From NCBI GenBank assembly GCA_963717965.1, contig CAVQXS010000004.1:1228-65227 (forward strand): DNA of 64,000 bases. The letters run 5' to 3'. The position numbers were made by a program, and so were the translations under genes. The stretch comes from an uncultured Thermoleophilia bacterium. GTDB taxonomy: Bacteria > Actinomycetota > Thermoleophilia > UBA2241. Under the pieces are notes generated by a model, which worked only from the letters and a program-made list of their open reading frames with translations, was not told where the DNA came from and made no database searches. Positions 2,648 through 19,613 of this stretch are shown piece by piece (position 1 is the first letter of the stretch; each line of letters opens with the position of its first letter).

Positions 2648-4339
2648 TTGAGGCGGGCGAAGTTCACCTTCGCGTGCTCGCGCTGCGACGCCGTCTTCGC
2701 CGACGCCGACGCCTTGAAGGCCCATGCGCTTGGTCACACCTTCCTTGAGGGCGGCGATAGCGAATGCGCCAACGCGCGGCTCACCGTGACGTTTGCATGC
2801 TCGCGCTGCGGCATGAGCTTCGGCGGCCGCGACGAGTTGAGGGAGCACGCTGTCGCGCACACAGTGCGGCACGCCGATCTGCCGAGTCCCGAGACCCACG
2901 ACGCACCGCGCCGAGCCGCCGGGGCCAGCCCGCGAGCCACGGGTCGCGCATCGTCCTCGTGCCCCCGGCGCTCGCGCTCGCCGTCGCCCCCGCTGCCGCG
3001 CTCGCTGCTCGCGCTCGCCGCGGACGCGGAGTCGCCAAAGCCGCTACTCTTCTGGCCGCCGCGGTGGCGCTGTCCTTGATCGTCGCGTTCGCTGCCGAAT
3101 GCTTGGTGGTTCGCGACACCGGTGGCCATTCCGGCCCAGGTCTCGATGGGGAACTGGGGGGATCACCTCACCTTCAGTCCCGGCTGCTCTCGCGCGATCC
3201 ACACGTCCGGTTCGGGCCGCAACCAGTCGGCGCCATCGCCTCAATCGATTCGCAGGGTAGTCTGTCGCTCGACTTCGGCGACGTTCGTAGCCCCGACTCG
3301 AGTAGCTGGAACGACGTCTTTCGCATGACTTCGAGCGCGCAGACGTCGCTCCAGATCGCCTTCACAACGAGCGGCGCCATTGCGCCCTTCATCCAGAGCG
3401 TCGCGTTCGTCAACGACGCGACGACGGCCACCTGGAGCCGAACAACACCAGGAGCGTCGCGGTGCGACTCCTCGTGCCGCAGAAGATCGCCGCCGATGCG
3501 TACACCGGCACGGTGACGGTGAGGGTCATCGGGAGCAGCGAGAGCTTCGCCGTCCCCCTGACGGTCGCGGTGCTCGGCAAGACACCCCACCCGTGGCCCT
3601 CCACTTCGCCGTCACCGAGTTGCAGCCCCAGCGCGTCACCGAGTTGCAGCCCCAGCGCGTCAGCGAGTTGCAGCCCCAGCGCGTCGCCAGTTGCAGCCCC
3701 AGCGCGTCGCCGAGTTGCAGCCCCAGCGCGTCGCCGAGTTGCAGCCCCAGCGCGTCGCCGAGTTGCAGCCCCAGCGCGTCGCCGAGTTGCAGCCCCAGCG
3801 CGTCGCCGAGTTGCAGCCCCAGCGCGTCACCGAGTTGCAGCCCCAGCGCGTCACCGAGTTGCAGCCCCAGTCCCCCACCGCCGCCGATACGGCTCTTCGA
3901 ATCTCATCCCCGGCCTGTCGACGATCCTGCCGAGGCCGGGCGCGCAGACGCCGCTGCGACCGTGGCCAGCCTGCAGGCCGACGGCACCATCAAGCTCGAC
4001 TTCGGCGAGGTGCCCCGTGCGCAGCGGACAACCTTCGACGACGTGGTGCGCATGACCTCGCGGGCCGGCCGCACCCCCAACGTGAGCCTCGCCATCTCGG
4101 GGCCAGCCGGCGCAGTCGTCCAGTGGGTCGGCTTCTGGGGGGGCAAGCATGAAAGCGACAGCGGCGGACTCACGCTGAAGGCAGGGCACACAGAGCAGCT
4201 TGCTTTCGGGCTCTACGCGCCTTCGAGCACTAACCCTGGAGAGCTGCAGGGCAGCCTGACGATCACAGCAAGGCTTGCCGACGGTCGTGTGCAGCAGCGC
4301 CAACTGCCCATCGTCATCGACGTCGTGACCGCGCACTGA
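2648..4339 (+). CDS. Multi-frameshifted gene: two C2H2 zinc fingers, TM/SipW-like signal segment, and two copies of a beta-rich extracellular domain separated by a (PSCSPSAS)n linker
   Basis: Pieces in ORFs 2648..3079, 2764..3516, 3122..3328, 3462..4055 and 3380..4339 join colinearly. The duplicated motif is ASIDSQGSLSLDFGDV...WNDVFRMTS / ASLQADGTIKLDFGEV...FDDVVRMTS. Confidence 0.6.
3615..3871 (+). repeat. 24-bp tandem repeat, 10 full units plus 1 partial, encoding PSCSPSAS
   Basis: Unit CCGAGTTGCAGCCCCAGCGCGTC(A/G); unit 4 (3687-3709) lacks one G, shifting the frame. Confidence 0.95.
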
Positions 4340-4739: not shown

Positions 4740-6281
4740 TCAGCCGCCGATCAGCAGCTTGAGCGCGCCCTGCGCCGCCTGCAGCAGCGGCTGGGGGAAC
4801 AGGCCCACGAGCACGACGCCGAGCGCGGCGATGGTGACGGCGGTGGCGACGCCCATGTTGGACGCGGCCGGCTCGGCCTCGACCTCGGCGCCCTCGGGCG
4901 CCTCGCGGAAGTACAGGTACCAGACGACGCGCAGGTAGTAGAACGCCGACACGGCGCTCATGATCACGGCGACGATGGCGAGCCAGGTGAGGTCGGCCTG
5001 GATGACCGCGGTGAAGAGGTAGAACTTGCCCCAGAAGCCCACGGTCGGCGGGATGCCGGTGAGCGAGATCATGAACAGCGTCATGAGGATGGCCGGCCAC
5101 GGCATGGTGCGGCCCAGGCCGGCCAGGCCCTCGAGCGAGTAGTCGTACCTGCGCTTGGCGCGGATCCAGATGAGCACGCCGAAGGCGCCGAGGTTCATGA
5201 GCGCGTAGGCGGCCAGGTAGAAGAGGATCGCGCTGATGCCGAGGGTCTCGCCGCTCTTGCCGGCGGCGATGACGCCCAGCGTGAGGTAGCCGGCGTGGGC
5301 GATGCTCGAGTAGGCGAGCATGCGCTTGAGGTTGCGCTGCGGCAGGGCGAGCACGTTCCCGACCACCATCGTGAGCACCGCGAGGATGATCATGACGTGG
5401 CCCCAGTCGGCCCAGGCGAGGCCGGCGGCCATGATGAAGAGCTTGGCGAAGCCGGCGAAGGCGGCGGCCTTGACGGCGGTGGCCATGAAGGCCGTGACCG
5501 GGGTGGGCGCCCCCTCGTAGACGTCGGGCGCCCAGCTGTGGAACGGCACCGCCGAGACCTTGAAGCCGAAGCCGGTGACGACGAGCGCGAAGGCGACGAC
5601 GAGGAAGCCGTCGGCGGCCAGGCCGGAGGCCTGCAGGACCGCGAGCCCCTTGGCGATGCCGGCGTAGCTCGTCTGCCCCGTCGCCGCGTAGAGCAGCGCG
5701 AGGCCGAAGGCGAGGATCGCCGAGGAGAAGGCGCCGGTGACGAAGTACTTGAGCGACGCCTCGGTCGAGCGCTCGTCGCGCCAGATGTAGCCGGCGAGGA
5801 TGTAGGTCGGCAGCGACATGAGCTCGAACGAGACGAAGAAGGCGATGACGTCGGTGCTCATCACCATGCCGATCATGCCGGTGACGACGAGCAGCAGCAG
5901 GCCGTAGAACTCGCCGCGGGCGGCGCCGCGCTCGGCCAGGTAGGCGTCGGAGAGCAGCACGGCGAGCACGCCGATGGCGGCGAACAGCACGACGGCGTAG
6001 AGCGCGTAGCGGTCGTGCCCGATCATCCCCGCGAAGCCGACGACGGCCTCGCGGCGGCCGAACACGAGCCCGCCGGAGAAGACCTTCCAGACGGCGAAGC
6101 CGGCGGTCCACTGGCCCCACTGGCCGACGGCGACGGCGGCGCCGGCGAGCAGGCCGGCGACGGCGATCCAGGCCAGCGCGCCCTTGCGCCTCAGGAACAG
6201 GTCGGCGACGAAGACGACGATCGCCGCGACGGCGATGACGACGCCCGGCAGGATCACGGTGATGGTGTTGTTCACGGGCAT
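4740..6281 (-). CDS. nuoN: NADH-quinone oxidoreductase subunit N
   Basis: EASLKYF, FKVSAVPFHSWAPDVYEGAPTPVTAF, KRMLAYSSIAHAGY. Confidence 0.95.
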   Translation of the reverse strand: MPVNNTITVILPGVVIAVAAIVVFVADLFLRRKGALAWIAVAGLLAGAAVAVGQWGQWTAGFAVWKVFSGGLVFGRREAVVGFAGMIGHDRYALYAVVLFAAIGVLAVLLSDAYLAERGAARGEFYGLLLLVVTGMIGMVMSTDVIAFFVSFELMSLPTYILAGYIWRDERSTEASLKYFVTGAFSSAILAFGLALLYAATGQTSYAGIAKGLAVLQASGLAADGFLVVAFALVVTGFGFKVSAVPFHSWAPDVYEGAPTPVTAFMATAVKAAAFAGFAKLFIMAAGLAWADWGHVMIILAVLTMVVGNVLALPQRNLKRMLAYSSIAHAGYLTLGVIAAGKSGETLGISAILFYLAAYALMNLGAFGVLIWIRAKRRYDYSLEGLAGLGRTMPWPAILMTLFMISLTGIPPTVGFWGKFYLFTAVIQADLTWLAIVAVIMSAVSAFYYLRVVWYLYFREAPEGAEVEAEPAASNMGVATAVTIAALGVVLVGLFPQPLLQAAQGALKLLIGG

Positions 6282-7874
6282 CTAGAACAGCCCCCTGGTG
6301 ACCTCGAAGAGCTGCGCCAGGCCGTGGACGGAGGCGCTCGCCTCCTGCATCGACGGGGTGACCCGCTGGAGGATCACCTGCACCGGCACGTGCAGGAACG
6401 CGAGGAAGGTCTGCGGGTAGACGCCCAGCCAGATGACGAAGACGACGAGCGGGACCAGCGAGGTGATCTCACGCGCGCTGAGGTCCTTGAGCGCGAACGA
6501 CGGCTTGACCTCGTCGTCGCCGCGGTCGTTGAACATCGTGCGCTGGAACATCCAGAGCAGGTAGGCGGCGGCGAGGATCACGCCGAGGGCGGCGACCGCC
6601 GCCATCCAGCGCGAGTACTCGAAGACGCCGAAGAGGCTGAGGAACTCGCCGACGAAGCCGCTCAGCCCGGGCAGGCCGAGGGAGCCGAAGGCGAAGAAGA
6701 GGAAGAAGCCGGCGAGCACCGGCAGCGGCTTCGCCAGCGAGCCCATGTCGGCGATCAGCCGCGTGTGCGTGCGCTCGTAGAGGAAGCCGACCATGAGGAA
6801 GAGGGCGCCCGTGAGGAAGCCGTGGCTGAGCATGACGAGGATGGCGCCCTCGATGCCGGCGGCGTTGCCGGCGACGGCGATGCCGGCGAAGATGCCGGCG
6901 GTGACGAAGCCCATGTGGCTCACGCTCGAGTAGGCGACGAGCTTCTTGAGGTCCTTCTGCATCAGCGAGACGAGCGCGCCGTAGACGATGGCGATCACCG
7001 AGAGCCCGACGACCCAGGGGACGAAGGTGACGGCGGCGTCCGGGAAGAAGGGCAGGCAGAAGCGCAGCATGCCGTAGCCGCCCATCTTCAGGAGGACGCC
7101 GGCCAGGATCACGGAGCCCGCCGTGGGCGCCTCGACGTGCGCGTCGGGGAGCCAGGTGTGCAGCGGGAACATCGGCACCTTGATGGCGAAGGCGACGAAG
7201 AAGGCGAGGAACGCCCAGAACTGCAGGTGGTACGAGTACACCGCCTTGCTCAGCGCCTGGATGTCGAAGGTGAGCGTCCCGGTCGCGTTCTTGACGTAGT
7301 ACACGACGACGATGATCGCCAGCAGCATGAGCAGGCTGCCGACGAGCGTGAACAGGAAGAACTTGATCGCCGCGTAGACGCGCCGCGGGCCGCCCCAGAC
7401 GCCGATGATGAAGTACATCGGGATGAGCATGGCCTCCCAGAACACGTAGAAGAGGAAGAGGTCGGTGGCGCAGAAGACGCCGACCATGCCCACCTCGAGC
7501 AGCAGCAGCGAGATGAAGAAGCCCATCTCGCGGTCCTTGACGTAGTTCCAGCTGGCGATGATGACGATCACGCCGAGCAGCGTGGTGAGGAAGACGAGCA
7601 GCGCGGCGATGCCGTCGACGCCCATGCCGTAGCGGATGTTGAGCGTCTTGATCCAGCTGATGTTCTCGGCGAACTGCATGCCCGGCAGCTTGGTCTTGAA
7701 GGCGAACAGCATCCACACCGAGAGCGCGAAGGCGGCCAGCGTGACGACCAGCGAGACGACCTTGTAGACGGCCGGCTTGCCGCGCCCGACGAGCAGGATG
7801 AGCAGCACGCCCGCCAGCGGCAGGAAGGTGATGACGGAGAGCAGCGGGAAGCCGATCTGGTCGCTCCAGCTCAT
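6282..7874 (-). CDS. nuoM: NADH-quinone oxidoreductase subunit M
   Basis: FYVFWEAMLIPMY, AIKVPMFPLHTWLPDAHVEAPTAGSVILAGVLLKMG. Confidence 0.95.
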   Translation of the reverse strand: MSWSDQIGFPLLSVITFLPLAGVLLILLVGRGKPAVYKVVSLVVTLAAFALSVWMLFAFKTKLPGMQFAENISWIKTLNIRYGMGVDGIAALLVFLTTLLGVIVIIASWNYVKDREMGFFISLLLLEVGMVGVFCATDLFLFYVFWEAMLIPMYFIIGVWGGPRRVYAAIKFFLFTLVGSLLMLLAIIVVVYYVKNATGTLTFDIQALSKAVYSYHLQFWAFLAFFVAFAIKVPMFPLHTWLPDAHVEAPTAGSVILAGVLLKMGGYGMLRFCLPFFPDAAVTFVPWVVGLSVIAIVYGALVSLMQKDLKKLVAYSSVSHMGFVTAGIFAGIAVAGNAAGIEGAILVMLSHGFLTGALFLMVGFLYERTHTRLIADMGSLAKPLPVLAGFFLFFAFGSLGLPGLSGFVGEFLSLFGVFEYSRWMAAVAALGVILAAAYLLWMFQRTMFNDRGDDEVKPSFALKDLSAREITSLVPLVVFVIWLGVYPQTFLAFLHVPVQVILQRVTPSMQEASASVHGLAQLFEVTRGLF

Positions 7875-7875
7875 G

Positions 7876-9792
7876 TCAGCTCCCCCACACCCAGGCGAGG
7901 ACGACGACGAGCACGAGCATGCCGCCGAAGACGTACATCGCGTAGTTCTGCACGCGGCCCGTCTGGATGGGCCGCAGGTGGTCGCCGAACCAGTCCCAGA
8001 GCCAGGCGACGCCGTTGACGGCGCCGTCGATGACGCGCGCGTCGACGAAGGTCCAGAGCCAGCTGGCGAAGCCGAGCGTGGCGCCCACGGGCACGACCGC
8101 GTAGAGGTCGTCCAGGTACACCTTGTTGAGGCTGACGCGGTAGACGCCCGGCAGGCGCTCGGCGAGGCGCCCGGGGGCGTCCGTCTGGCGCACGTAGAGC
8201 CACCAGGCGATGTACAGCCCGACGAGCACGGTGACGAGCGAGGCGAGCATCAGCAGGCCGCCCTCGCCGGCCCAGTGGAAGGCCTCGCCCTCGACGTCGA
8301 AGAACACCGGGTGCAGGAACTCGTGGATCCAGCCCTCCTCGGGCGGGAAGCCGACGACGATGCCGAGCAGCGTCGCCGGGATGGCGAGCAGCACGAGCGG
8401 CACGGTCATGATCGGCGGGGACTCGTGGATGTGCGCCTGGACCTCGGCGTCGGCGCGGTTCTCGCCCCAGAAGGTCATGAAGATGAGGCGGCCCATGTAG
8501 ATGGCGGTGAGCAGCACGGTGATCATCGCCACCGCCCAGACCACGTACTGGCCCTTGAGGAAGGTGGCGCCGACGATCTCGTCCTTGGCCCAGAAGCCGG
8601 CGAAGGGGATCATGCCGACCATGGAGAGGGCGCCGGCGAGCATCGTCCAGAAGGTGAGCGGGATCTTCTTGCGCAGCCCGCCCATCTTGCGCATGTCCTG
8701 CTCGCCGCCCATGGCGTGGATCACCGAGCCCGAGCAGAGGAAGAGGAGGCCCTTGAAGAAGCCGTGCGCGAACAGGTAGAAGATGCCGGCCACCCAGGCG
8801 CCCGCGCCGAGGGCGACGAACATGAAGCCCAGCGACGAGATGGTGGAGTAGGCGATCACCTTCTTGATGTCGTTCTGGGTGATCGCGATGTAGGCGGCGA
8901 GGATGGCCGTGAAGATGCCGACGATCATGACCACGGTCATCGCCGTGTCGCTCTGGATGAACAGCGGGTACGAGCGCGCCACCATGTAGACGCCGGCGTT
9001 GACCATGGTGGCGGCGTGGATCAGGGCGCTGACCGGGGTCGGGCCCTCCATGGCGTCCGGGAGCCACACGTGCAGCGGGAACTGCGCGCTCTTGCCGATC
9101 GCGCCGGTGAAGAGCAGCAGGCAGATCCAGGTCATGGTGCCGGCGGCGATGTCGCCCTTCTCCGCCGCCTCGAAGACGCCGGTGAACTGCAGCGTCCCGG
9201 TGACCACGAAGATGAGGAACATCGCCAGGGTGAAGCCGAAGTCGCCCACGCGGTTGACGATGAACGCCTTCTTGCCCGCCTGGCTGGCGCTCTTCTTGCG
9301 GAACCAGAAGCTGATCAGCAGGTAGGAGCAGAGGCCCACGCCCTCCCAGCCCAGGAACAGCAGCAGGTAGCTGTCGGCGAGGATGAGCACGAACATCGCG
9401 AACATGAACAGGTTGAGGTAGGCGAAGAAGCGGTAGTAGCCCTCGTCGCCGTGCATGTAGCCGATCGAGTAGTAGTGGACCAGCATGCCGATGACGCCGA
9501 CGACCAGCAGCATGACGCCGGTGAGCGTGTCGACCTGGAAGCCCCAGGGCACGGTGAACTGGCCGGCGGCGATCCAGGTGAAGGCGTTCCAGACGAAGGT
9601 CTCCTCCTGGTGACGGAAGGCCCACTCGAAGCCGTAGACGGAGAGCACGGCCGAGATGGTCACCATGGCCACGGGGAAGATGTGCGCGTGCTTGCCCCAG
9701 CGCTTGCCGAACAGCAGCGTCACGATGAAGCCGAGCAGCGGCAGCAGCGGGATCAGCGCGACGGCGATCTTCATGTAGTCGGTCCCCTCCAC
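7876..9792 (-). CDS. nuoL: NADH-quinone oxidoreductase subunit L
   Basis: GKSAQFPLHVWLPDAMEGPTPVSALIHAATMV and the C-terminal QTGRVQNY motif. Confidence 0.95.
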   Translation of the reverse strand: MEGTDYMKIAVALIPLLPLLGFIVTLLFGKRWGKHAHIFPVAMVTISAVLSVYGFEWAFRHQEETFVWNAFTWIAAGQFTVPWGFQVDTLTGVMLLVVGVIGMLVHYYSIGYMHGDEGYYRFFAYLNLFMFAMFVLILADSYLLLFLGWEGVGLCSYLLISFWFRKKSASQAGKKAFIVNRVGDFGFTLAMFLIFVVTGTLQFTGVFEAAEKGDIAAGTMTWICLLLFTGAIGKSAQFPLHVWLPDAMEGPTPVSALIHAATMVNAGVYMVARSYPLFIQSDTAMTVVMIVGIFTAILAAYIAITQNDIKKVIAYSTISSLGFMFVALGAGAWVAGIFYLFAHGFFKGLLFLCSGSVIHAMGGEQDMRKMGGLRKKIPLTFWTMLAGALSMVGMIPFAGFWAKDEIVGATFLKGQYVVWAVAMITVLLTAIYMGRLIFMTFWGENRADAEVQAHIHESPPIMTVPLVLLAIPATLLGIVVGFPPEEGWIHEFLHPVFFDVEGEAFHWAGEGGLLMLASLVTVLVGLYIAWWLYVRQTDAPGRLAERLPGVYRVSLNKVYLDDLYAVVPVGATLGFASWLWTFVDARVIDGAVNGVAWLWDWFGDHLRPIQTGRVQNYAMYVFGGMLVLVVVLAWVWGS

Positions 9793-9802
9793 GGTCCCCT
9801 CG

Positions 9803-10111
9803 TCAGCCCTTGAGCTCGTCGAAGGTGTCGGCCTGCACGGTGCGCTTGTTGCGGTAGTTGGCGATCACGATGGCGAGGCCGATGGTCACTTCGGCGGCGG
9901 CGATCACGATGATGAAGAGCGCGAAGAGCGTGCCCGCCCCCTTGGCGCCGCCACGGAAGTTGGCGGTCGCGACGAGGGCGATGTTGACGGCGTTGAGCAT
10001 GACCTCGAGGCTCATCACGACGAGGATGACGTTGCGCCGCGCGAGCACGCCGAAGGCGCCGATGCAGAAGAGCAGGAAGGCGAGCAGCAGCCACCAGTAG
10101 AGGGCGCTCAT
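9803..10111 (-). CDS. nuoK: NADH-quinone oxidoreductase subunit K
   Basis: RRNVILVVMSLEVMLNAVN, AAAEVTIGLAI; start taken at ATG 10111. Confidence 0.92.
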   Translation of the reverse strand: MSALYWWLLLAFLLFCIGAFGVLARRNVILVVMSLEVMLNAVNIALVATANFRGGAKGAGTLFALFIIVIAAAEVTIGLAIVIANYRNKRTVQADTFDELKG

Positions 10112-10163
10112 GACGCCTCGCCTTCCGGCGTACACGAGCGGGCCGCCGTAGGTAGACCGCTCA

Positions 10164-10673
10164 TCAGCGCTCCTTCTCGCGGGTCGCGAGCACGATCGCG
10201 CCGATCATCGCCGCGACGAGCACGAGCGAGACCAGCTCGAAGGGGAACACGTAGCGGTCGAAGATGAGCTTGGAGAGCTGGCGCAGGCCGGGCGTGAGCG
10301 ACTTGTCGCCGGCGGCGCCGATGTCGGCCGAGAGGGCGACGATGGCGAGCAGCGCGGCGCCGAAGAGCGCCACCACGGCGGCGATCGCCGTCTGGCGGTT
10401 GAAGAACAGGTCGTAGCCGCCGTGCTGCACCTCGGTGAGCATGATCGCGAAGATGATCACGATCGAGATGGCGCCGACGTAGACGAGGATCTGGATGATC
10501 GCCACCAGCGGCGCGTTGAGCAGGGCGTAGGCGAAGGCGACGCCGAGGAAGCAGAACACCATGGAGACGGCGGAGTACATGATCTTCTTGAACAGCACGA
10601 CGCCGAGGCCGCAGACGAGCACCCAGAAGGCGACGACGAGGAAGTACCAGAAGTGGAAGTCGCCGCCGGGCAT
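10164..10673 (-). CDS. nuoJ: NADH-quinone oxidoreductase subunit J
   Basis: QILVYVGAISIVIIFAIML and YVFPFELVSLVLVAAMIGAIVL; the ATG overlaps the upstream stop. Confidence 0.92.
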   Translation of the reverse strand: MPGGDFHFWYFLVVAFWVLVCGLGVVLFKKIMYSAVSMVFCFLGVAFAYALLNAPLVAIIQILVYVGAISIVIIFAIMLTEVQHGGYDLFFNRQTAIAAVVALFGAALLAIVALSADIGAAGDKSLTPGLRQLSKLIFDRYVFPFELVSLVLVAAMIGAIVLATREKER

Positions 10674-13147
10674 CAGGCCTGCTCCTCCGGGTCGTCGAGC
10701 GCGATCGGGTCGTCCTTCATCGGCTGCCAGACGTAGCCGAGGCCGAGCTCGGCGTCGCGCACGTGCGGGACGAGGTCCTTGACCGTCTCGTGCAGCGGGT
10801 CGACGGCGAGCGACTCGCGGATGTAGAGCGACTCGCGCGCCATCGTCGTGCGGCTGTAGCCGGCGAGCTCGAAGAAGTCGGTCTGCTCGAGCGCGTCGTA
10901 GGGGCAGACCTCGACGCACTCGCCGCAGAAGATGCAGCGGCTCTCGTCGAGGTCGTAGCTGCCGAGGATGCGCGGGTTGGTCTCGATCGAGCCGGTCGGG
11001 CAGGTCTCGGCGCACTTGCCGCAGCTCACGCAGCCGACCAGCTGCAGCGGCAGGTTGTCGGCGGTGCTGACGATGGTGTCGAAGCCGCGGTCCATGTTGT
11101 CGTAGCAGCTCGACCCGACCTCCATGCGGCAGACGCGCACGCAGCGGCCGCAATTGATGCAGCGGTTGGGCTCGCGCATGATGAAGTCGTGGCGGAAGTC
11201 GGCCGGGTAGTCGTGGGCGTCGCCGCCGTGGAAGCGGTTCTTGAAGACCTCGTACTCGATGCCGTAGCGCTGCAGGTCGCACTTGCCGCTGGCCGGGCAG
11301 TAGCAGTCGAGGCAGAGCTCGGCGCCGCGCACCGCTTCGTCTTCGCCGAAGCCGAGCTCGATCTGCTTGAAGTTCGTGCGCCGGTCCTCGGGCTCGAGCT
11401 TGGGCATCTCGGCCGGCGGGCTCGGGTGCGTCACGTCGGTGGTCATGTCGATGAACACCGGCGGGATCTCGGCCATGCGCGAGATGCGCGGGTCGAGGTC
11501 GGTCTTGGTGCTCAGCGCGGTGAAGAACGGCGTCGCCTTGAGCTCGGCGAGCGACTGCGAGACGTCCTGCATGTCGGCGCCGCGGAGGTAGGCGTCCATG
11601 CTCCAGGCGGCCTTCTTGCCCTGGGCGATGGCCTGGATCACGGTCTGCGCGCCGAGCACGGCGTCGCCGCCGGCGAACACGCGCGGGTCCTCGGTCTGGA
11701 AGGTCCAGTCGTCGACCTGGATGGTGCGCCACTTGGTGCGTTTGACGCCCTGCTCCTCGCTGGTGCCGTCGAGCTTGGGGTACTGGCCGATGGCGGTGAT
11801 CACCTGGTCGCACTCGACGACGAACTCGGAGCCCTCGATGGGCACGGGGCGGCGGCGGCCGGAGGCGTCGGGCTCGCCGAGCTCCATGCGCAGCATCTCG
11901 ATGCCGGTGACCTTGTTGCCCGCGTCGGTGAGCACCTTGACGGGCGCGCACAGCAGCTCGAGCTTGACGCCCTCCTCCTCGGCCTCGTCGACCTCGGTGA
12001 CATGAGCGGGCATCTCCTTGCGCGAGCGGCGGTAGAGACAGGTGACCTCGGCGGCGCCCTTGCGGAGGCTGGTGCGGCAGGCGTCCATGGCGGTGAAGCC
12101 GCCGCCGATGACGGTGACCTTGTCGCCGACGTGGACGCTGCCGGTGACCTCGAGCTCGCCGAGGAAGTCGACGGCGGTGACGACGCCGTCGGCGTCCTCG
12201 CCGGGGCAGCCCATGTCGTTGCTGTTGAAGGCGCCGAGGGCGAGGAAGACGACGTCGTACTCCTCGAGCAGGTCCTCGAGCTGGTAGTCGACGCCCAGGC
12301 GGCTGTTGACCTGGAGCTCGACGCCCATGCGCCAGAGCACGTTGATCTCCTTGTCGACCAGGTCGCGCGGCAGGCGGTAGCTCGGGATGCCGTAGCGCAG
12401 CATGCCGCCCGGCTTGGGCATGGCCTCGAAGATCTTGACCGCGTGCCCCTCGAGCCGCGCGTAGAAGGCGGCGGCCATGCCGGCAGGCCCGCCGCCGACG
12501 ATGGCGATCTTCTTGCCGGTGTCGGCCTTCGGCTCGACCGGCAGCAGCAGCTCGCCGGTCTGCTCCTCGTCGACCGTCTGGTCGGCCATGAAGCGGTGCA
12601 GCTGGCAGATGGTGATCGGGTGCTCGACCAGCTGCCGGCGGCACGGGCCCTCGCAGGGCCGCGGGCAGACGCGCCCGAGGATAGCCGGGAACGGCAGGTC
12701 CTCGCGCAGCTTGCGCACGCCGTTCTTGTAGTCCTTGTGGGCGATGTAGTCGAGGAACTGCGGGATCTTGATGTGCGTCGGGCAGGCGTCGCGGCAGGGC
12801 GGCGTGCAGAAGGAGTTGTGGTCGCTGAGCAGCAGCTCGAGGTAGAGGTGCCGCATGGCGCGGATCTTCTCGGTGTTGGTGTGCACGACCATGCCGTCGG
12901 AGACGGCCGCGGAGCAGCTCGGGACCAGCTTGCGCGCGCCCTCGACCTCGACGATGCACATGCGGCAGGCGGCGGTGGCCGGCAGGCGCGGCTCGTAGCA
13001 GAGCGTCGGGATGTGGATGCCGATGCGCTGCGCCGCGTCGAGGATCGTGTCGCCGCGCTCGCAGATCACGTCCTGACCGTCGACGGTCAGGGTGATCTGG
13101 CCGGGGCGCGGCGTCGTCTGCGGCACGTTCTCCACCGTCGTCGCCAT
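10673..13147 (-). CDS. NuoG-type Fe-S scaffold with an inserted GltD/NfnB-like FAD/NADP(H) oxidoreductase, fused to the C-terminal half of NuoI
   Basis: N-terminal 2Fe-2S domain (PTLCY...CRMCIVE...PSC); PPCRDACP/GRVCPRPCEGPC; GGGPAG, GGMLRYGIP, GGGFTAMD, YRRS, FAGGD; then CINCGRCVRVC, CVSCGKCAETCP and the NuoI-type YDLDESRCIFCGECVEVCPYDAL...FELA. Confidence 0.85.
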   Translation of the reverse strand: MATTVENVPQTTPRPGQITLTVDGQDVICERGDTILDAAQRIGIHIPTLCYEPRLPATAACRMCIVEVEGARKLVPSCSAAVSDGMVVHTNTEKIRAMRHLYLELLLSDHNSFCTPPCRDACPTHIKIPQFLDYIAHKDYKNGVRKLREDLPFPAILGRVCPRPCEGPCRRQLVEHPITICQLHRFMADQTVDEEQTGELLLPVEPKADTGKKIAIVGGGPAGMAAAFYARLEGHAVKIFEAMPKPGGMLRYGIPSYRLPRDLVDKEINVLWRMGVELQVNSRLGVDYQLEDLLEEYDVVFLALGAFNSNDMGCPGEDADGVVTAVDFLGELEVTGSVHVGDKVTVIGGGFTAMDACRTSLRKGAAEVTCLYRRSRKEMPAHVTEVDEAEEEGVKLELLCAPVKVLTDAGNKVTGIEMLRMELGEPDASGRRRPVPIEGSEFVVECDQVITAIGQYPKLDGTSEEQGVKRTKWRTIQVDDWTFQTEDPRVFAGGDAVLGAQTVIQAIAQGKKAAWSMDAYLRGADMQDVSQSLAELKATPFFTALSTKTDLDPRISRMAEIPPVFIDMTTDVTHPSPPAEMPKLEPEDRRTNFKQIELGFGEDEAVRGAELCLDCYCPASGKCDLQRYGIEYEVFKNRFHGGDAHDYPADFRHDFIMREPNRCINCGRCVRVCRMEVGSSCYDNMDRGFDTIVSTADNLPLQLVGCVSCGKCAETCPTGSIETNPRILGSYDLDESRCIFCGECVEVCPYDALEQTDFFELAGYSRTTMARESLYIRESLAVDPLHETVKDLVPHVRDAELGLGYVWQPMKDDPIALDDPEEQA

Positions 13148-13149
13148 GG

Positions 13150-15069
13150 TCAGGCCTCAGCCCCCTCGGCGGCCGCGCCGGCGACCGCCAGCTCGACGCC
13201 CGAGCGCACCTTGACGGCGTCGAACTTGCAGACCTGGCGGCAGGTGTCGCACTTGATGCAGTTGGCCACGTCGATGACGTGCAGCTGCTTCTTCTCGCCG
13301 CTGATGCACGAGGTGGGGCACTTCTTGGCGCACAGGGTGCAGCCGGTGCAGGCGTCGGCGTCGATGTAGTAGGTGATCAGCGCCTTGCACTTGCCCGCCG
13401 GGCAGCGCTTCTCGCGGATGTGCGCCTCGTACTCGCTGCGGAAGTACTTGATCGTCGTGAGCACGGGGTTCGGGGCGGTGCCGCCGAGCGCGCACAGCGA
13501 GCCGTCGATGATGTAGTGGCCCATCTCCTCGAGGAGCTCGATGTCGCCCTCGCGGCCTTCGCCCTCCTTGATGCGGTCGAGCGTCTCGAGCATGCGCTTG
13601 GTGCCGAGCCGGCAGGGGACGCACTTGCCGCAGCTCTCCTTCTGGGTGAAGTCGAGGAAGAAGCGCGCGAGGTCGACCATGCAGGTCTCTTCGTCGACCA
13701 CGACCATGCCGCCGGAGCCGACGATGGCGCCGGTCGCGGCGAGGCTCTCGTAGTCGACCGGCGTGTCGAGGAGCGAGGCGGGCACGCAGCCGCCGGAGGG
13801 GCCGCCGAGCTGGACGGCCTTGAACTTCTTGCCGTCCTTGATGCCGCCGCCGACGTCGAAGATGAGGTGCCGGAGGCTGGACCCCATCGGCACCTCGACG
13901 AGGCCGCCGTTGACGACCTTGCCGGCGAGGCTGAAGGCCTTGGTGCCGCGGCTGGTCTCGGCGCCGAGCGCGGAGTAGGCCTCGGCGCCGTGCTTGATGA
14001 TCCACGGGACGTTGGAGAACGTCTCGACGTTGTTGATGTTGGTCGGCTTGCCGTAGAGGCCCGACACCGCCGGGAACGGCGGCCGCGTGCGCGGCATGCC
14101 GCGCTTGCCCTCGATCGAGGCGATGAGCGCCGTCTCCTCGCCGCAGACGAAGGCGCCGGCGCCGAGCTTGAGGTGCACGTTGAACTCCCAGCCGGTGCCG
14201 AAGACGTCCTTGCCCAGGAAGCCGCGCTCCTCGGCGGCGGCGACCGCCATGGTGAGGCGCTTGACCGCCTGCGGGTACTCGGCGCGCACGTACACGTACC
14301 CCTCGTGCGCGCCGATCGCGTAGCTGCCGATGATCATGCCCTCGATGACGACGTGCGGGTCGCCCTCGAGGATCGAGCAGTCCATGAACGCGCCGGGGTC
14401 GCCCTCGTCGGCGTTGCAGATGAGGTACTTCTCGTCGCCCGGCGAGGCCGCGGCGAACTTCCACTTGACGCCGGTCGGGAAGCCGGCGCCGCCGCGGCCG
14501 CGGATGCCCGAGTCGGTGACGTGCTCGATGATCCACTCGGGCGTCTGCTCGGTGAGCGCCATGCGCGCCGCCTCGTAGCCGCCGACGGCGATGTACGCGT
14601 CGATGCTCTCCGGGTTGATGACGCCGACGTCGCGCAGGGCGATGCGCGTCTGCGCCTTGTAGAACCCGATGTCGTGCCAGTCGCGGATGCGCTCGCCGCT
14701 CTGCGCGTCCTTGTAGAGGAAGCGCTCGACCGGCGTGCCGCCCTTGAGGTGCTCCTCGACGACCTTGGCGACGTCCCTCGGCTTCAGGTGTCCGTAGAGG
14801 GTGTCGTCGCTGAGCACCACCACCGGGCTCATCGAGCAGAGCCCGTGGCAGCCGATGATGCTGACCTCGACGCTGTCGCCCAGCCCGGCCTCCTGGACCT
14901 CCTGGACGAAGGTGTCGAAGACGGCGAGCGAGCCGGCGAACATGCAGGCGGTGCCGGCGCACACCTTGACGGCGTAGCCGCCGCCGGGGCGCTCGGCCAC
15001 GCTGACGTTGCGGGCGTCCGTGTCCGGACGCGGTGTAGTCGTCTCTTCAGCCATGATCTCTCTGCTCAT
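13150..15069 (-). CDS. nuoF: HydB/BfuB-type NuoF (FMN/NADH subunit with N-terminal 2Fe-2S and C-terminal 2x[4Fe-4S])
   Basis: CAGTAC...CHGLC; RGRGGAGFPTG; NADEGDPGAFMD; GAFVCGEETAL; ESCGKCVPCR; HIREKRCPAGKC; CTGCTLCAKKCP and CIKCDTCRQVC. Confidence 0.92.
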   Translation of the reverse strand: MSREIMAEETTTPRPDTDARNVSVAERPGGGYAVKVCAGTACMFAGSLAVFDTFVQEVQEAGLGDSVEVSIIGCHGLCSMSPVVVLSDDTLYGHLKPRDVAKVVEEHLKGGTPVERFLYKDAQSGERIRDWHDIGFYKAQTRIALRDVGVINPESIDAYIAVGGYEAARMALTEQTPEWIIEHVTDSGIRGRGGAGFPTGVKWKFAAASPGDEKYLICNADEGDPGAFMDCSILEGDPHVVIEGMIIGSYAIGAHEGYVYVRAEYPQAVKRLTMAVAAAEERGFLGKDVFGTGWEFNVHLKLGAGAFVCGEETALIASIEGKRGMPRTRPPFPAVSGLYGKPTNINNVETFSNVPWIIKHGAEAYSALGAETSRGTKAFSLAGKVVNGGLVEVPMGSSLRHLIFDVGGGIKDGKKFKAVQLGGPSGGCVPASLLDTPVDYESLAATGAIVGSGGMVVVDEETCMVDLARFFLDFTQKESCGKCVPCRLGTKRMLETLDRIKEGEGREGDIELLEEMGHYIIDGSLCALGGTAPNPVLTTIKYFRSEYEAHIREKRCPAGKCKALITYYIDADACTGCTLCAKKCPTSCISGEKKQLHVIDVANCIKCDTCRQVCKFDAVKVRSGVELAVAGAAAEGAEA

Positions 15070-15827
15070 CCCTTCTGACCGCCGACCTCTTCCATGAGGT
15101 CGCGGATGATCTTGCGCGTGGCGTCAGGGGTGAGGCCGCCGTAGGTGTTCTCGCCGATGCGCATGACCGGAGCCTGCGAGCAGGCGCCCATGCAGGCGAC
15201 CGACGAGAGCGTGAACTTCATGTCGCTGGTCGTCTTGCCGTCGGCGACCCCGAGCTCCTCCTCCAAGGCCTCGGTGATCTGGACCGCCCCTGCGACGTGG
15301 CAGGCGGTGCCGTGGCAGACGTCGATGATGTGCTCGCCGACCGGCGAGAGCCGGAACTGGTTGTAGAAGCTCGAGACGCCGTAGATCTGGCTGAGCGAGA
15401 CGCCGGTCTGCAGGCTGATCTCCTGGAGGGCGATGCGCGGCAGGTAGCCGTACACCTCCTGGGCGTTCTGCAGCATGGCGATGAGGCCGGTGCCGTGCTC
15501 GTAGTAGTCGTCGAGCACCGGCTGCAGCGCCTTGAGGTCGATGCCCTGCTGGGCCGCGAGACGAGCTTCGCTGATCCGCGCGGCGTTGGGCACCGGCAGC
15601 GTGTACTTGCTCGTGTGGTTCACGCGGATCACCTGCACGGGGCAGTTGCTCTCGCAGAGCGTGCACGAGCGGCAGCGCGGCTCGCCGCTGGACGGGTCGA
15701 TGACCACGCGGAAGAGGCCGCGGCTGCGCGCCGGCAGCAGCTCGCGCTCCTCCGGGTACTGCACGGTGATCTTCTTCATGGGCAGGTGACGCAGCGTCTG
15801 GCGCATCGCCTTGAACATGCCGAGCAT
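15066..15827 (-). CDS. nuoE: Fusion of the N-terminal half of NuoI to a NuoE/HydC-type 2Fe-2S subunit
   Basis: TVQYPEE...RSRG...RCRSCTLCESNCPVQVI (NuoI N-half), then LQNAQEVYGYLP, VCHGTACH, VACMGACSQAP (NuoE). Confidence 0.85.
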   Translation of the reverse strand: MLGMFKAMRQTLRHLPMKKITVQYPEERELLPARSRGLFRVVIDPSSGEPRCRSCTLCESNCPVQVIRVNHTSKYTLPVPNAARISEARLAAQQGIDLKALQPVLDDYYEHGTGLIAMLQNAQEVYGYLPRIALQEISLQTGVSLSQIYGVSSFYNQFRLSPVGEHIIDVCHGTACHVAGAVQITEALEEELGVADGKTTSDMKFTLSSVACMGACSQAPVMRIGENTYGGLTPDATRKIIRDLMEEVGGQKG

Positions 15828-16948
15828 CAGGCGCTCACCACCGGCTGGCGCTCACGCTGCTTGCGCAGGCGGCGCTTGAGGAGCGGGTCGAAGAGCGCGA
15901 CGAAGGCGAAGAAGGCGATCCAGCTGAAGACCGCGAGGCCCCACTTCCAGCTGGGCACCCAGAGGATGATCGCCGCCGTGGCGAGGATGTTCACGAGCCC
16001 GAGCGGGATGAGGATCTTCCAGGCGAAGGCCATGAGCTGGTCGACCTGGAGGCGCGGCAGCGAGAGCCGGATCCAGACCAGCGCGAACACGAGCACGTAG
16101 GTCTTGGCGAGGAACCAGACGATGCCGATCCAGTCGACGCCCCAGAAGTCGATGGCGCCGGCGAACGGCCCCATCCAGCCGCCGAAGAAGAGCGTCACGG
16201 CGACCATCGACATGATCGTCATGCCGGCGTACTCGTTGAGGAAGAACATGCCGAAGCGCATGCCCGAGTACTCGGTGCCGTAGCCGGACACGAGCTCGGA
16301 CTCCGACTCGGGGAGGTCGAACGGGCCGCGGTTCAGCTCGGCGATGGAGGCGATGTAGAAGATGAGGAAGCTGAAGGGCGCGTAGAAGACGATCCACTCG
16401 TAGCCGGACTGGAAGGCGACGACGGCCTCGATGCGCAGCGACCCGACGACCATCGCCACGATGAGGAGGCCGAGGATCATCGGGATCTCGTAGCTGATCA
16501 TCTGGGCGGCGGCGCGCAGCGCCCCCACCAGCGAGTACTTGTTGCGCGACGACCAGCCGCCGAGGAGGATCGAGAGCGTCGTGAAGCTGGTGATCGCGAC
16601 GAGGAAGATGATGCCGACGTTGAGGCTGGTCGCCATGAGCCCGCCGGTGTAGGGGATCACCAGCTGGATGGCGACCGCGCCGATCATCACCGTGACCGGC
16701 GCGAGCGTGAACAGGAACGGGTCGGCGAGCAGCGGGCGGAAGTCCTCCTTGCCCATCATCTTGAAGGCGTCGGCGATGCTCTGCAGCACGCCGTGCGGCC
16801 CGGTGCGGTTGGGGCCGTGGCGGTCCTGCATGAACGCCAGGGCGCGGCGCTCGAAGACGATGTTGACGAGCGCCGCCACGAACACCACCGCGTAGGAGAT
16901 GACGACGAAGAGGATGGCCCGGAGGATGCCGACGATGATGTCCACCAT
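15827..16948 (-). CDS. nuoH: NADH-quinone oxidoreductase subunit H
   Basis: ERRALAFMQDRHGPNRTGP, RAAAQMISYEIP, AELNRGPFDLPESESELVSG. Confidence 0.95.
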   Translation of the reverse strand: MVDIIVGILRAILFVVISYAVVFVAALVNIVFERRALAFMQDRHGPNRTGPHGVLQSIADAFKMMGKEDFRPLLADPFLFTLAPVTVMIGAVAIQLVIPYTGGLMATSLNVGIIFLVAITSFTTLSILLGGWSSRNKYSLVGALRAAAQMISYEIPMILGLLIVAMVVGSLRIEAVVAFQSGYEWIVFYAPFSFLIFYIASIAELNRGPFDLPESESELVSGYGTEYSGMRFGMFFLNEYAGMTIMSMVAVTLFFGGWMGPFAGAIDFWGVDWIGIVWFLAKTYVLVFALVWIRLSLPRLQVDQLMAFAWKILIPLGLVNILATAAIILWVPSWKWGLAVFSWIAFFAFVALFDPLLKRRLRKQRERQPVVSA

Positions 16949-18162
16949 CAGCGGTCGATCCCTCCCAGCACGAGGTCGATGCTGCCCGAGATGGCCACGG
17001 CGTCGGCGATCTTGTTGCCGCTGAGGATCTTGGGGAACAGCTGCAGGTTGCAGAAGCAGGGGTCGCGGAACTTGAGCCGGTACGGGTACCGCGACCCGTC
17101 GCTCTCGATGTAGGTGCCGAACTCGCCGCGCGGGTTCTCCTGCCCGACGTAGCACGCGCCCGGGGGCGGCGTGATCACGTAGGGCGCGCGCAGCGAGCCC
17201 ACCTGGACGGGGCCCTTGGGCAGCATGTCGAGGCACTGCTCGATGATCTTGACGCTCTCGCGCATCTCGTCCATGCGCACGCGGTAGCGGTCGAAGATGT
17301 CGCCGTGCTGCTCGGTGACGACCTCGAAGTCGAGCTCCGGGTAGACCGAGTAGGGGCGCGAGCGGCGCAGGTCCAGCGCGACGCCGGAGGCGCGCGCGTT
17401 GGGGCCGGTGATGCCGTAGTCGACGACGTCCTGCTGGGTGATGACGCCCTTGCCCTGGGTGCGCTGCAGGAAGATGGCGTTGTGGTCGACGAGGGCCTCG
17501 TACTCCTTGATCATCTTCGGGAACTTCGAGATGTAGTCGCGGCACTTCTCGACCCAGCCGTCGGGCAGGTCGTAGCGCACGCCGCCGAAGCGGAAGTAGT
17601 TGAACATCATGCGCGCGCCGGTGAGCTCCTCCATCAGGTCGAGGATGGTCTCGCGGTCGCGGAACATGTAGAAGACCATCGCCGTGCCCAGCGGCGAGAG
17701 GTCGGCGGTGAAGGTGCCGACCGCCACGAGGTGGCTGGCGATGCGCATGAGCTCGCCGGTGATGACGCGGATGAACTCCGCCCGCCGCGTCACCTGGATG
17801 CCGGCGAGCTTCTCGACCGTCATCACGTAGGCCCACTCGCAGTTGATGCTGGCGACGTACTCGGTGCGGTCGACGATGGGGATGTACTGGAAGTAGGTGC
17901 GGCGCTCGGCGAGCTTCTCCTTGCAGCGGTGCAGGTAGCCGATCACCGGGATGACGTCCTTGACGAGCTCGCCGTCGAGCGTCACGACCAGCCGCAGCAC
18001 GCCGTGCGTGCTGGGGTGCTGCGGCCCCATGTTGACCACGACCTCGTTGAAGGCGAGGCCGTCGACGTCCGAGCCCTCGCCGCGCGCCGTCGACTCCTCG
18101 ATGCGGCGCAGCGCGAGCTTGACGGCCTCGTCCGGCTCGGGGCTCTCGAACTGGTCATACAT
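16948..18162 (-). CDS. nuoD: NADH-quinone oxidoreductase subunit D
   Basis: [27 protein letters not shown]-terminal [11 protein letters not shown]; no NiFe CxxC motifs. Confidence 0.93.
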
Positions 18163-18650
18163 GCGGGTGGTTCTCCGCGAGGTCGACGTAGTCTTTGCGC
18201 AGCGGGTGCCCGACGAAGTCGTCCTTGAGCAGGATGCGGCGCATGTCGGGGTGGCCGAGGTAGACGATGCCGACCATGTCCCAGGACTCGCGCTCGTGCC
18301 AGTCCGCGGCCGGCCAGACGCCGGTGACGGTGTCGACCTCGGGCTTCGCGCGCGGCAGGTCGACGTGCAGCTCGAGGTAGGTGTTCGTCTTCCACGAGTA
18401 GACGTGGTAGACGCTCTCGAGCGAGGTGCGGCGGTCGACGCCGGCGATCCAGTTGAGGGTCTCGTAGCCGGCGTCGGCGTCGGCCTTGAGGCGCGCGGCG
18501 ACGTCCTTGAGCTTCTCGCGCGCGCAGCGCGCGACGACGGTGTCCGGCTCCTGGATGCGCACGTCCGTGAGGTCGCCGGCGAAGCGCTCGGCGAGCAGCG
18601 TCGGCGATGGCGTCCATGCTCATGGGGTTGCTGCCGACGACGAGGCCCAT
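18155..18650 (-). CDS. nuoC: NADH-quinone oxidoreductase subunit C; frameshift near 18600
   Basis: [35 protein letters not shown]; the N-terminus [11 protein letters not shown] is in the adjacent frame. Confidence 0.85.
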
Positions 18651-18655
18651 CGCGC

Positions 18656-19248
18656 TCAGGCCTCTTCGGCCGGCGCGGCCGCGGGAGCCGCCTCCGTCGC
18701 CGGCGCGGCCGCCTCGGGGCCGCCGGCTTCTCGGGGACGAACTTGTGCTGCTGGATCTTGCCCTGCAGCTCCAGCAGCCCCTGGAAGAGCGCCTCGGGGC
18801 GCGGCGGGCAGCCGGGGATGTAGACGTCGACCGGCACGACCTTGTCGACGCCGTTGACGACGTTGTAGCCGTCGTAGAACGGGCCGCCGCTGGTGGCGCA
18901 GGCGCCCATGCTGATGACCCACTTGGGCTCCGACATCTGGTCGTAGAGGCGCTTGAGCACCGGCGCCATCTTCTCGTTGACGGTGCCGGCGACGATCATG
19001 AGGTCGCACTGGCGCGGCGTGGGGCGGAACACCTCCATGCCGTAGCGGGCGACGTCGAAGCGGGCGAAGCCGGAGCTGAGCATCTCGATGGCGCAGCAGG
19101 CGAGGCCGTAGGTGAACGGGAAGACCGAGTGCGAGCGCGCCCAGCTGAAGATGAAGTCGGCGGTGGTGGTGATGACGTTCGGCTCGCTGAAGTGCTCGAG
19201 CTTGGGGTACCGGAGGCCCTTGGCGCGCTCCGGCACGGACTCACTCAC
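18656..19248 (-). CDS. nuoB: NADH-quinone oxidoreductase subunit B; frameshift near 18735 in the C-terminal tail
   Basis: [34 protein letters not shown]; the GTG overlaps the nuoA stop. Confidence 0.9.
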
Positions 19249-19613
19249 GCCCACTCGAGGGCCCCCTTGCGCCAGGCGTAGAGCAGGCCGAAGGCGAGCA
19301 CGGCGATGAACACCAGCATCTCGATGAACCCGGCGGTGCCGAGGCTGCGGAAGACGATCGCCCACGGGAACAGGAAGGCCGCCTCCACGTCGAACACGAG
19401 GAACAGGAGGCCGAAGACGAAGTAGCGCACGGCGAACGGCTGCCACGGGTTGCCGACCGGCGGGATGCCGCACTCGTACGGCTGCAGCTTCTCGGGCGTG
19501 AGGTGGCTCGGATTGATGAGCTTGGAGAAGAGCAGGATGAGGACGACCAGCGCCGCGCCGGCGACGATGAACAGCCAGACATAGAGCCAGTCAGTGAGAT
19601 ATGCGTTCGTCAT
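19245..19613 (-). CDS. nuoA: NADH-quinone oxidoreductase subunit A
   Basis: [31 protein letters not shown]. Confidence 0.95.

Follow-up and report, generated by a model that had tools for sequence, protein, structure and literature searches.

NuoI is among the best conserved core subunits of complex I; how is it encoded in a nuo operon that has no stand-alone nuoI gene? The question is raised by a stretch of 64,000 nucleotides (the window) on contig CAVQXS010000004.1 of an uncultured Thermoleophilia bacterium. As the initial annotation had proposed, the thirteen genes of its minus-strand nuo operon follow the order nuoA-B-C-D-H-[P1-P2-P3]-J-K-L-M-N (Table 1), with no nuoE, nuoF or nuoG gene between nuoD and nuoH, where a canonical 14-subunit operon has NuoEFG in addition to a separate nuoI further on. 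The interval between nuoH and nuoJ, which is the position of nuoI, is occupied by three genes for redox proteins, here called P1, P2 and P3. We found the first half of NuoI at the head of P1 and the second half at the end of P3, about 4.6 kb away. Our preferred reading, to which we give a probability of about 75%, is that the operon encodes a working complex I variant in which NuoI is most likely rebuilt from these two pieces and is fed by an Nfn/Stn-type Bfu module. The membrane arm and the quinone module (NuoA, B, C, D, H and J-N) are ordinary. Neighbouring genes, which overlap or abut (TGATG at nuoH/P1 and at P3/nuoJ, ATGA at P1/P2, a gap of 2 nt between P2 and P3), are translationally coupled.

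The split falls exactly between the two cluster motifs of nuoI. Against TIGR01971, the NuoI hidden Markov model of NCBIfam (121 positions), residues 9-74 of P1 matched positions 3-66 (E = 5.2e-13, 48.7 bits) and residues 724-769 of P3 matched positions 69-114 (E = 2.7e-15, 56 bits), both far under the whole-protein cut-off of 113.05 bits, which is expected of halves. These complementary partial matches bear out two in-frame fusions that had been claimed earlier, of a NuoI N-half to a NuoE-like protein and of a NuoI C-half to the end of a protein of 824 amino acids (aa) with 2Fe-2S, GltD-like and iron-sulfur (Fe-S) domains; the coordinates given for the halves, 15827-15620 and 10980-10673, were correct. 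Alignment by hhalign of nine intact NuoI of the family with the P1 family paired NuoI columns 2-71 with P1 residues 2-72 (probability 97.6%). At the other end, the NuoI equivalog model NF004537 matched P3 residues 726-790, and the C-half matched solved NuoI, NdhI and NDUFS8 chains in single stretches of 40-55 residues. The two halves cover such chains without overlap: residues 30-95 (P1) and 107-154 (P3) of 5xtb_B, 23-88 and 99-147 of 7ar7_I, and 42-105 and 117-164 of 8b9z_I. About 11 residues between them are left uncovered, at the hairpin that separates the motifs, and it is this hairpin that is replaced in the window by a whole input module. In NuoI, Nqo9 or NDUFS8 (TYKY), which holds clusters N6a and N6b, the two CxxCxxCxxxCP motifs belong to one polypeptide; here P1 has the N-terminal segment with the first motif and P3 the second motif with the tail, each half being fused to another redox protein. 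The segments specific to NuoI outside the motifs are present as well, the N-terminal one (YPEE...RxRG) in the P1 head and the C-terminal tail at the end of P3. In agreement with the earlier count, one CxxCxxCxxxC(P) motif is found in P1 (from C52) and three in P3 (from C663, C706 and C738, hereafter motifs A, B and C).

The simplest objection, that an assembly or binning artefact has united unrelated genes, could appeal to the source of the window, a draft genome of 13 contigs that is 81% complete. The chance of this is negligible, since the same joints are found in 21 independently assembled loci of relatives, some 120 full-length homologues of P1 are listed, and contigs from two DNA runs of different studies also span the joints, so that a misassembly at the junctions is not supported. 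Contigs from two RNA libraries span them too. In one run (X1) a contig joined position 10505 to 16016, skipping 5510 bases; it was judged unreliable, with 27 letters on its shorter side and a fusion of the middle of nuoJ to the middle of nuoH.

The same split recurs in 21 of 21 loci where it was sought among relatives. The order A-B-C-D-H-P1-P2-P3-J-K-L-M was found in all 15 loci of a first set, and the same gene order in all six further, more distant ones, of which one has P2 and P3 rearranged and one has frameshift-like breaks; most relatives' loci are free of stops and frameshifts. The best 120 of 1119 matches to P1 are 66-93% identical and nearly all 250-253 aa long, and their carriers are named in public records as uncultured Thermoleophilia or Actinomycetota metagenome-assembled genomes (MAGs). 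When 151 genomes of the class were sampled, the matches listed showed the NuoI head in 25 of 26 genomes from the family to which the window belongs and in no other family. A Thermoleophilia-type gene is also filed under a Deltaproteobacteria MAG (L043, a contig of 3780 nt, 92% identity) and a Vicinamibacteria MAG (L092, 2037 nt, 71%); these filings are probably binning errors. A low-G+C protein of 251 aa from a rare lineage, P0124, has the NuoI-head::NuoE architecture at 42% identity; two metagenome scans gave no match for its lineage, and P0270 was its sole relative in the protein search.

Both NuoI halves are under purifying selection. The cysteines and the proline of the N-half motif are invariant in 15 of 15 sequences, and those of the C-half motif in 14 of 14. 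The pairwise ratio of nonsynonymous to synonymous rates (dN/dS) has a median of 0.23 in the N-half and 0.24 in the C-half; the linker that follows the N-half reaches 0.68, and the remaining redox domains lie at 0.15-0.35 (Nei-Gojobori method, own script; synonymous rates are rough in a genome of 71% G+C).

Several observations weigh against a NuoI rebuilt from two polypeptides, beginning with the profile scores under the cut-off. The genome of the window also holds a full canonical nuo operon on another contig (C12:~133300-148325, L001), with separate NuoE (163 aa) and NuoF (454 aa) and an intact NuoI (217 aa, 156 bits with TIGR01971). The RNA-library contigs over the stretch are no proof of transcription. 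In one divergent relative (L087, 6001-10273) the NuoF-like protein (461 aa) has no detectable flavin mononucleotide (FMN) domain, and the NADPH subdomain of the P3-like protein is replaced by a 2x[4Fe-4S] ferredoxin; since both NuoI halves are nevertheless intact, the flavin sites are not essential in every version. The evidence for assembly in trans comes from sequences and from a complex prediction whose support is weak. Lastly, intact NuoI can be aligned with P3 over both of its motifs: BLASTP places them on residues 706-773 and hhalign pairs NuoI 49-123 with P3 704-771 (probability 98.7%), i.e. on motifs B and C, which are spaced by 22 residues as in an ordinary cis ferredoxin.

The canonical operon on C12 suggests a first alternative, in which the window operon is decaying or accessory, its two halves are remnants and the normal NuoI of the second operon serves the complex. 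The window subunits are 33-56% identical to those of the C12 operon (37-56% for nuoA, nuoB, nuoC, nuoD and nuoH), and in a six-frame search of the genome profile positions below 15 were reached, among the matches listed, only by P1 and by one intact NuoI on another contig. An intact NuoI above the cut-off is present in just 17 of 41 family genomes and, among those of at least 90% completeness and at most 5% contamination, in 5 of 19. In the other 14, which include a one-contig genome, nothing beyond the two half matches was found, so that most of these organisms have NuoI in the split form only. An intact nuoI elsewhere with eroded halves in relatives, the outcome that would speak for a remnant, is thus not what was found; together with the invariant cysteines, a dN/dS of about 0.23 and the open frames of most loci, this makes decay highly improbable.

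The alignments with motifs B and C bear on how the four motifs are paired. In the 2x[4Fe-4S] ferredoxin fold each cluster takes three Cys from one motif and its fourth from the other, and with a split between the motifs both clusters would therefore lie between subunits. Ligation of N6a and N6b in trans, as the initial annotation had it, appears the most economical reading, in which the P1 motif would pair with motif C of P3; complementary mapping, the co-occurrence of the halves, purifying selection and a weak pass in complex prediction point to this pairing. The prediction (P1 1-95 and P3 640-824 with four 4Fe-4S clusters; three runs and three controls) scored 0.53 in each run, against 0.00 for the best control, which we take as weak support. 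In calibration, 58 of 80 solved complexes reached the mark, as did 2 of 110 mismatched pairs; at scores of 0.60 or less, only 7 of the 80 solved complexes did so, along with both passing mismatches. At least 62% of contacts are common to the runs, with a predicted local distance difference test (pLDDT) of at least 54 for the partner. Their alignments and riding ligands are unlike those of the calibration, and since NuoI has been solved many times the pass may reflect likeness to, or memory of, the intact fold.

Part of the trans proposal meets a competitor here. Motifs B and C of P3 could form a full NuoI-like 2x[4Fe-4S] domain in cis, with the P1 motif pairing with motif A or binding a cluster at another interface; the function of NuoI would then lie essentially in P3, and P1 would only dock. 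Apart from the BLASTP and hhalign matches of intact NuoI, Pfam Fer4_7 spans P3 706-752 as a single dicluster domain, the spacing of B and C compares with 20 residues in the cis ferredoxin of P2 itself, and polyferredoxin chains align across both motifs. Generic ferredoxin motifs align with one another anyway, however, and for this reason alignment does not decide between cis and trans. Against the cis arrangement, motifs A and B, with a 33-residue insert, align as one unit with NfnA (9bov_A 553-698), StnC and HydA chains, where they are one domain; as judged from this block common to the three, A and B belong together. The NuoI-specific P1 head of 50 residues (97.6%) would also be left without a second motif. 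Moreover, the third motif behind B and the N-terminal motif on the NuoE-like protein either occur together or are both absent among the paralogous modules compared: in four other NuoG/HydA-type dicluster proteins of the genome (one on C11, two on C2, a second one on C4) no third motif follows B, an N-terminal Cys motif is missing from the NuoE-like proteins examined (C11, C2, C3, C12), and both features were present only in the complex I cassette and in a cassette linked to pyruvate:ferredoxin oxidoreductase (PFOR), described below. We regard the cis arrangement as improbable. In the trans pairing the virtual chain would read N...A-B-C with pairs N-C and A-B, presumably the nested topology of four-cluster proteins of the DmsB/NarH type.

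What is the module that lies between the two halves? The initial annotation had described a three-gene flavin/Fe-S insert. That a module is inserted stands, while its genes are not of classical NuoE, NuoF and NuoG kind: to judge by domains and solved relatives, they form a Bfu module with a HydBC-like core and an Nfn/Stn-type (StnC-type) third subunit. Behind its NuoI half, P1 has a domain matched by NF005722 (NuoE; residues 100-243, 145 bits, above cut-off) and by PF01257 (104-244), the best solved relatives being NfnC (9n5u_C, 9bov_C) and StnA (8oh5_A). P2 is matched by PF01257 (26-106), PF01512 (184-355), PF10589 (466-550) and Fer4 (567-620) and contains the motifs GRGGAGF (191), GAGAFVCGEE (303) and CGKCVPC (480), followed by further Cys motifs (574 and 604). 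It thus begins with a thioredoxin-like 2Fe-2S domain, carries FMN/NADH motifs and an N3-type cluster, and ends in a 2x[4Fe-4S] ferredoxin, a make-up which by its domains is that of HydB/BfuB and not of classical NuoF. P2 and P1 together have the composition of the Bfu family, namely a BfuB with FMN/NADH sites and extra N- and C-terminal clusters and a BfuC with a [2Fe-2S] cluster. The 2.65-Mb draft genome is unusually rich in Bfu-type modules, with 6 or more NuoF-like genes besides several dicluster proteins of HydA or Fdh kind (contigs C2, C3, C10, C11, C12 and C4).

The third protein, P3, has a GltD domain inserted into a NuoG-like domain, with the motifs H110-x3-C-x3-C-x3-CP and C612-x2-C-x-C-x5-C at the junctions. 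Junction motifs of this form, HxxxCxxxCxxxCP and CxxCxCxxxxxC, are described for Stn/Nso in the available text of PMC7483475. P3 thus shares with Nfn-Bfu/StnABC a GltD domain placed inside a NuoG/HydA-type domain with both junction motifs. Its best solved relative is 9bov_A (over P3 residues 19-744), followed by 8oh5_C and 9n5u_A, and PF22117 (Fer4_Nqo3) matches residues 655-720 below its cut-off. The likeness to NfnA stops directly after motif B, where NfnA continues into an FdhF-like domain and P3 into its NuoI half; P3 ends 80 residues past the stop of the alignment with 9bov_A (698 of 1178). No molybdopterin-family Pfam match was found in P3, which lacks the FdhF-like C-terminal domain of Nfn-Bfu/StnABC. 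In one relative (L035, 4555-8976) P2 and P3 are read in a single frame of 1473 aa, which may be a BfuB::BfuA fusion or a missed stop.

The module therefore has to be compared with two kinds of known system. With NfnABC/StnABC (9bov, 8oh5 and 9n5u; available texts of PMC11829005, PMC10482914 and PMC7483475) it shares the three kinds of subunit, the domain order, the GltD domain inside the NuoG/HydA-type domain, both junction Cys motifs and the extra BfuB-type clusters of P2. It differs in that the FdhF-like C-terminal domain (StnC 683-1172), which is inactive in StnC according to the available text of PMC10482914, is absent from P3, where the NuoI C-half takes its place; in that BfuC bears the NuoI N-half; and in that the genes lie inside a nuo operon, implying a membrane-bound enzyme with menaquinone as partner. 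Enzymes called Nuo-Bfu, Por-Bfu and Nfn-Bfu were predicted by Schut et al. 2022 (PMC9304861), whose main text places Nuo-Bfu in genomes of Geobacter, Deferribacteres, Planctomycetes and Nitrospirae. Like the window operon, Nuo-Bfu has a BfuBC-type input module in the middle of a nuo cluster, and menaquinone is its proposed partner. It is presented there as 14 subunits A-N with BfuABC for NuoEFG, so presumably with a separate NuoI, and BfuA is not described in that text as Nfn/GltD-type; the window operon has 13 genes, no separate NuoI and a BfuA of Nfn type. Neither 'NuoI' nor 'Actinobacteria' occurs in the main text of PMC9304861. No split NuoI was found in full-text searches of main texts that included the available texts of PMC4758237, PMC4453560, PMC9304861 and PMC9326234; nor was an Nfn-type module on complex I found in such searches of main texts. 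The statement that no example had been described thus holds for the split as far as these searches go, while complex I linked to Bfu was already predicted as a class in 2022 (PMC9304861, main text).

A related cassette is found beside PFOR genes. In relatives, three further genes come after those for PFOR gamma, delta and alpha; they encode a half-ferredoxin::NuoE protein (257-278 aa, a half-ferredoxin head and a NuoE domain), a BfuB of 637 aa and a protein of about 1060 aa that is P3-like (2Fe-2S/GltD) through the third motif and then continues into a thiamine pyrophosphate (TPP; PFOR beta) domain. It was seen in 14 loci, of which L105 repeats an earlier place, another is a fragment and a third breaks off ahead of the last gene. 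In the genome of the window, the truncated end of the gene of about 1060 aa lies at the start of contig C7 (C7:3-1637, L004). The cassette resembles the Por-Bfu of Dehalococcoidia and syntrophs (PMC9304861, main text) in its place with PFOR gamma, delta and alpha genes. It differs in that the PFOR beta domain is fused behind the NuoI-like half motif of a GltD-containing BfuA and BfuC has the matching half, whereas that main text has four separate Por subunits.

How did nuoI come to be split? An 11-subunit complex that gained its input module by insertion into nuoI, as was first suggested, would fit the gene order and the better-preserved NuoI head of the complex I form, to judge from the sequences; it remains unproven, the same split being present in the PFOR paralogue and the NuoF-like gene having been exchanged. 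Another history would lead to the same anatomy: a soluble Bfu enzyme with an already split ferredoxin (BfuC head, BfuA tail) may have been recruited into an 11-gene nuo operon, displacing nuoI. The PFOR cassette carries homologous halves and, among the matches listed, occurs in two families (f1 and f4), the complex I form in f1 only. The NuoF-like gene, too, moves between modules. In a careful tree of the NuoF-like proteins, 10 of 14 complex I copies are sister to a third, soluble BfuBC type, which adjoins folate-pathway (folD- and fhs-like) genes, and the remaining 4 fall with the PFOR type, one even within its clade; this grouping suggests that the gene was swapped between paralogous modules (P2, 13150-15069; L031, L032, L033 and L086; C10:518052-520486), and because of the exchange dating of the cassette through this gene failed. 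On the other side, likeness to NuoI starts at the second residue of the P1 head and takes in the stretch ahead of the motif, whereas the PFOR head can be aligned with P1 only from residue 26 and looks like a more degenerate NuoI head; the cassette is located exactly at the nuoI position, between nuoH and nuoJ; and in a quick unrooted tree the P3 proteins of both cassettes form two clean groups (18 and 7 rows) with a long branch between, neither nested in the other. We consider recruitment rather unlikely.

Table 1. Genes of the nuo operon, domains of P1 and P3, and examples of the PFOR-linked cassette (window positions unless a locus is named; P1, P2 and P3 are the three genes between nuoH and nuoJ).
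Feature	Position	Strand	Basis
nuoA	19245-19613	-	
nuoB	~18733-19245	-	
nuoC	18155-18562	-	
nuoD	16948-18162	-	
nuoH	15827-16948	-	
Upstream block nuoA, nuoB, nuoC, nuoD, nuoH	15827-19613	-	
P1, NuoI N-half::NuoE/BfuC-like [2Fe-2S] protein, 253 aa	15066-15827	-	TIGR01971, NF005722, PF01257
NuoI N-half, P1 residues 1-75	15603-15827	-	hhalign, invariant cysteines, dN/dS
N-half cluster motif C52-x2-C55-x2-C58-x3-C62-P63	15639-15674	-	
NuoE/BfuC domain of P1, residues ~100-245, [2Fe-2S] cysteines C171, C176, C212, C216	15093-15530	-	
P2, NuoF/BfuB(HydB)-like flavoprotein, 639 aa	13150-15069	-	Pfam domains and motifs
P3, StnC/NfnA-like subunit ending in NuoI C-half, 824 aa	10673-13147	-	NF009454 residues 17-674; solved relatives
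[2Fe-2S] NuoG/HydA-type N-terminal domain of P3, residues 17-92	12872-13099	-	PF13510 17-92
GltD/NfnB-like flavin adenine dinucleotide (FAD) and NAD(P)H domain of P3, two [4Fe-4S] sites, residues ~114-525	11573-12808	-	PF14691 114-194, PF07992 213-510
HydA/NuoG-type dicluster domain of P3, residues ~655-722, motif A C663 and motif B C706	10982-11185	-	block alignment with 9bov_A 553-698
NuoI C-half and NuoI-type tail, P3 residues 723-790	10778-10981	-	TIGR01971 69-114; NF004537 726-790
C-half motif C738-x2-C741-x2-C744-x3-C748-P749	10901-10936	-	
nuoJ	10164-10673	-	
nuoK	9803-10135	-	
nuoL	7876-9792	-	
nuoM	6282-7874	-	
nuoN	4740-6281	-	
Downstream block nuoJ, nuoK, nuoL, nuoM, nuoN	4740-10673	-	
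PFOR cassette examples	L021 3958-11489; L023 3503-11588		

Beyond nuoN, an open reading frame on the plus strand (3380-4339) contains a long run of short repeats rich in Ser, Pro, Ala and Cys, as seen in the list of open reading frames only.

How could such an enzyme work? Menaquinone is the quinone of actinobacteria. The input unit would consist of P1 as the BfuC/NuoE-like subunit, P2 as the BfuB/HydB-like subunit with FMN and an NADH site, and P3 as a StnC-type BfuA with the FAD/NADPH domain of GltD kind. The P1 head and the P3 end would fold jointly into one NuoI-like 2x[4Fe-4S] domain, N6a and N6b each taking three Cys from one polypeptide and one from the other. The rebuilt NuoI would then be both the wire to N2 in NuoB and a covalent tie of the input module to the quinone module. 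For the Csac NfnABC, the available text of PMC11829005 gives the path FAD-A7-A6-A3-A2-A1-[B1-FMN-C1]-B3-B4, with ferredoxin binding at B3/B4 and overflow to A4/A5. The third subunit of soluble NfnABC has a dicluster domain that leads to the inactive FdhF-like domain; as the latter is replaced in P3 by a NuoI half, the dicluster side branch may run on through N6a/N6b to N2 and menaquinone. NADH and/or NADPH, possibly with reduced ferredoxin entering via the C-terminal clusters of P2, would be oxidized by menaquinone with proton pumping. The motifs suggest these substrates, and the split-NuoI complex may bifurcate or confurcate electrons between NAD(H), ferredoxin and a third substrate, as is characteristic of the Bfu family.

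Taken further, the enzyme could be a membrane-bound, proton-pumping four-way redox hub, and many anaerobic Thermoleophilia would have no other complex I. Its bifurcating core of Bfu type would be hard-wired to the quinone module by a two-polypeptide NuoI, and one enzyme would link the pools of NADH, NADPH, ferredoxin and menaquinone with one another and with the proton motive force. We put this forward as a tentative proposal, less likely to be true than false. Were it true, NADH and reduced ferredoxin could, for example, be confurcated to menaquinone, or ferredoxin or NADP+ could be reduced at the expense of the proton gradient, and the complex would contain a rare natural 2x[4Fe-4S] fold with both clusters ligated 3+1 across a subunit interface. 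Assembly in trans, if it takes place, would be a natural experiment on the tolerance of the ferredoxin fold to fission, and would show one way for a respiratory complex to gain a new electron-input module, through the insertion of genes and their fusion in frame. The predicted class of Bfu-linked complex I would gain, if the halves assemble, a version covalently tied to the quinone module, a tie which makes physical coupling less doubtful than for mere operon neighbours; an NADPH site is predicted to be added to complex I as well. Since most genomes of this lineage, which is widespread in soil and sediment, have no complex I other than the split-NuoI form, the latter bears on energy conservation in these uncultured actinobacteria.

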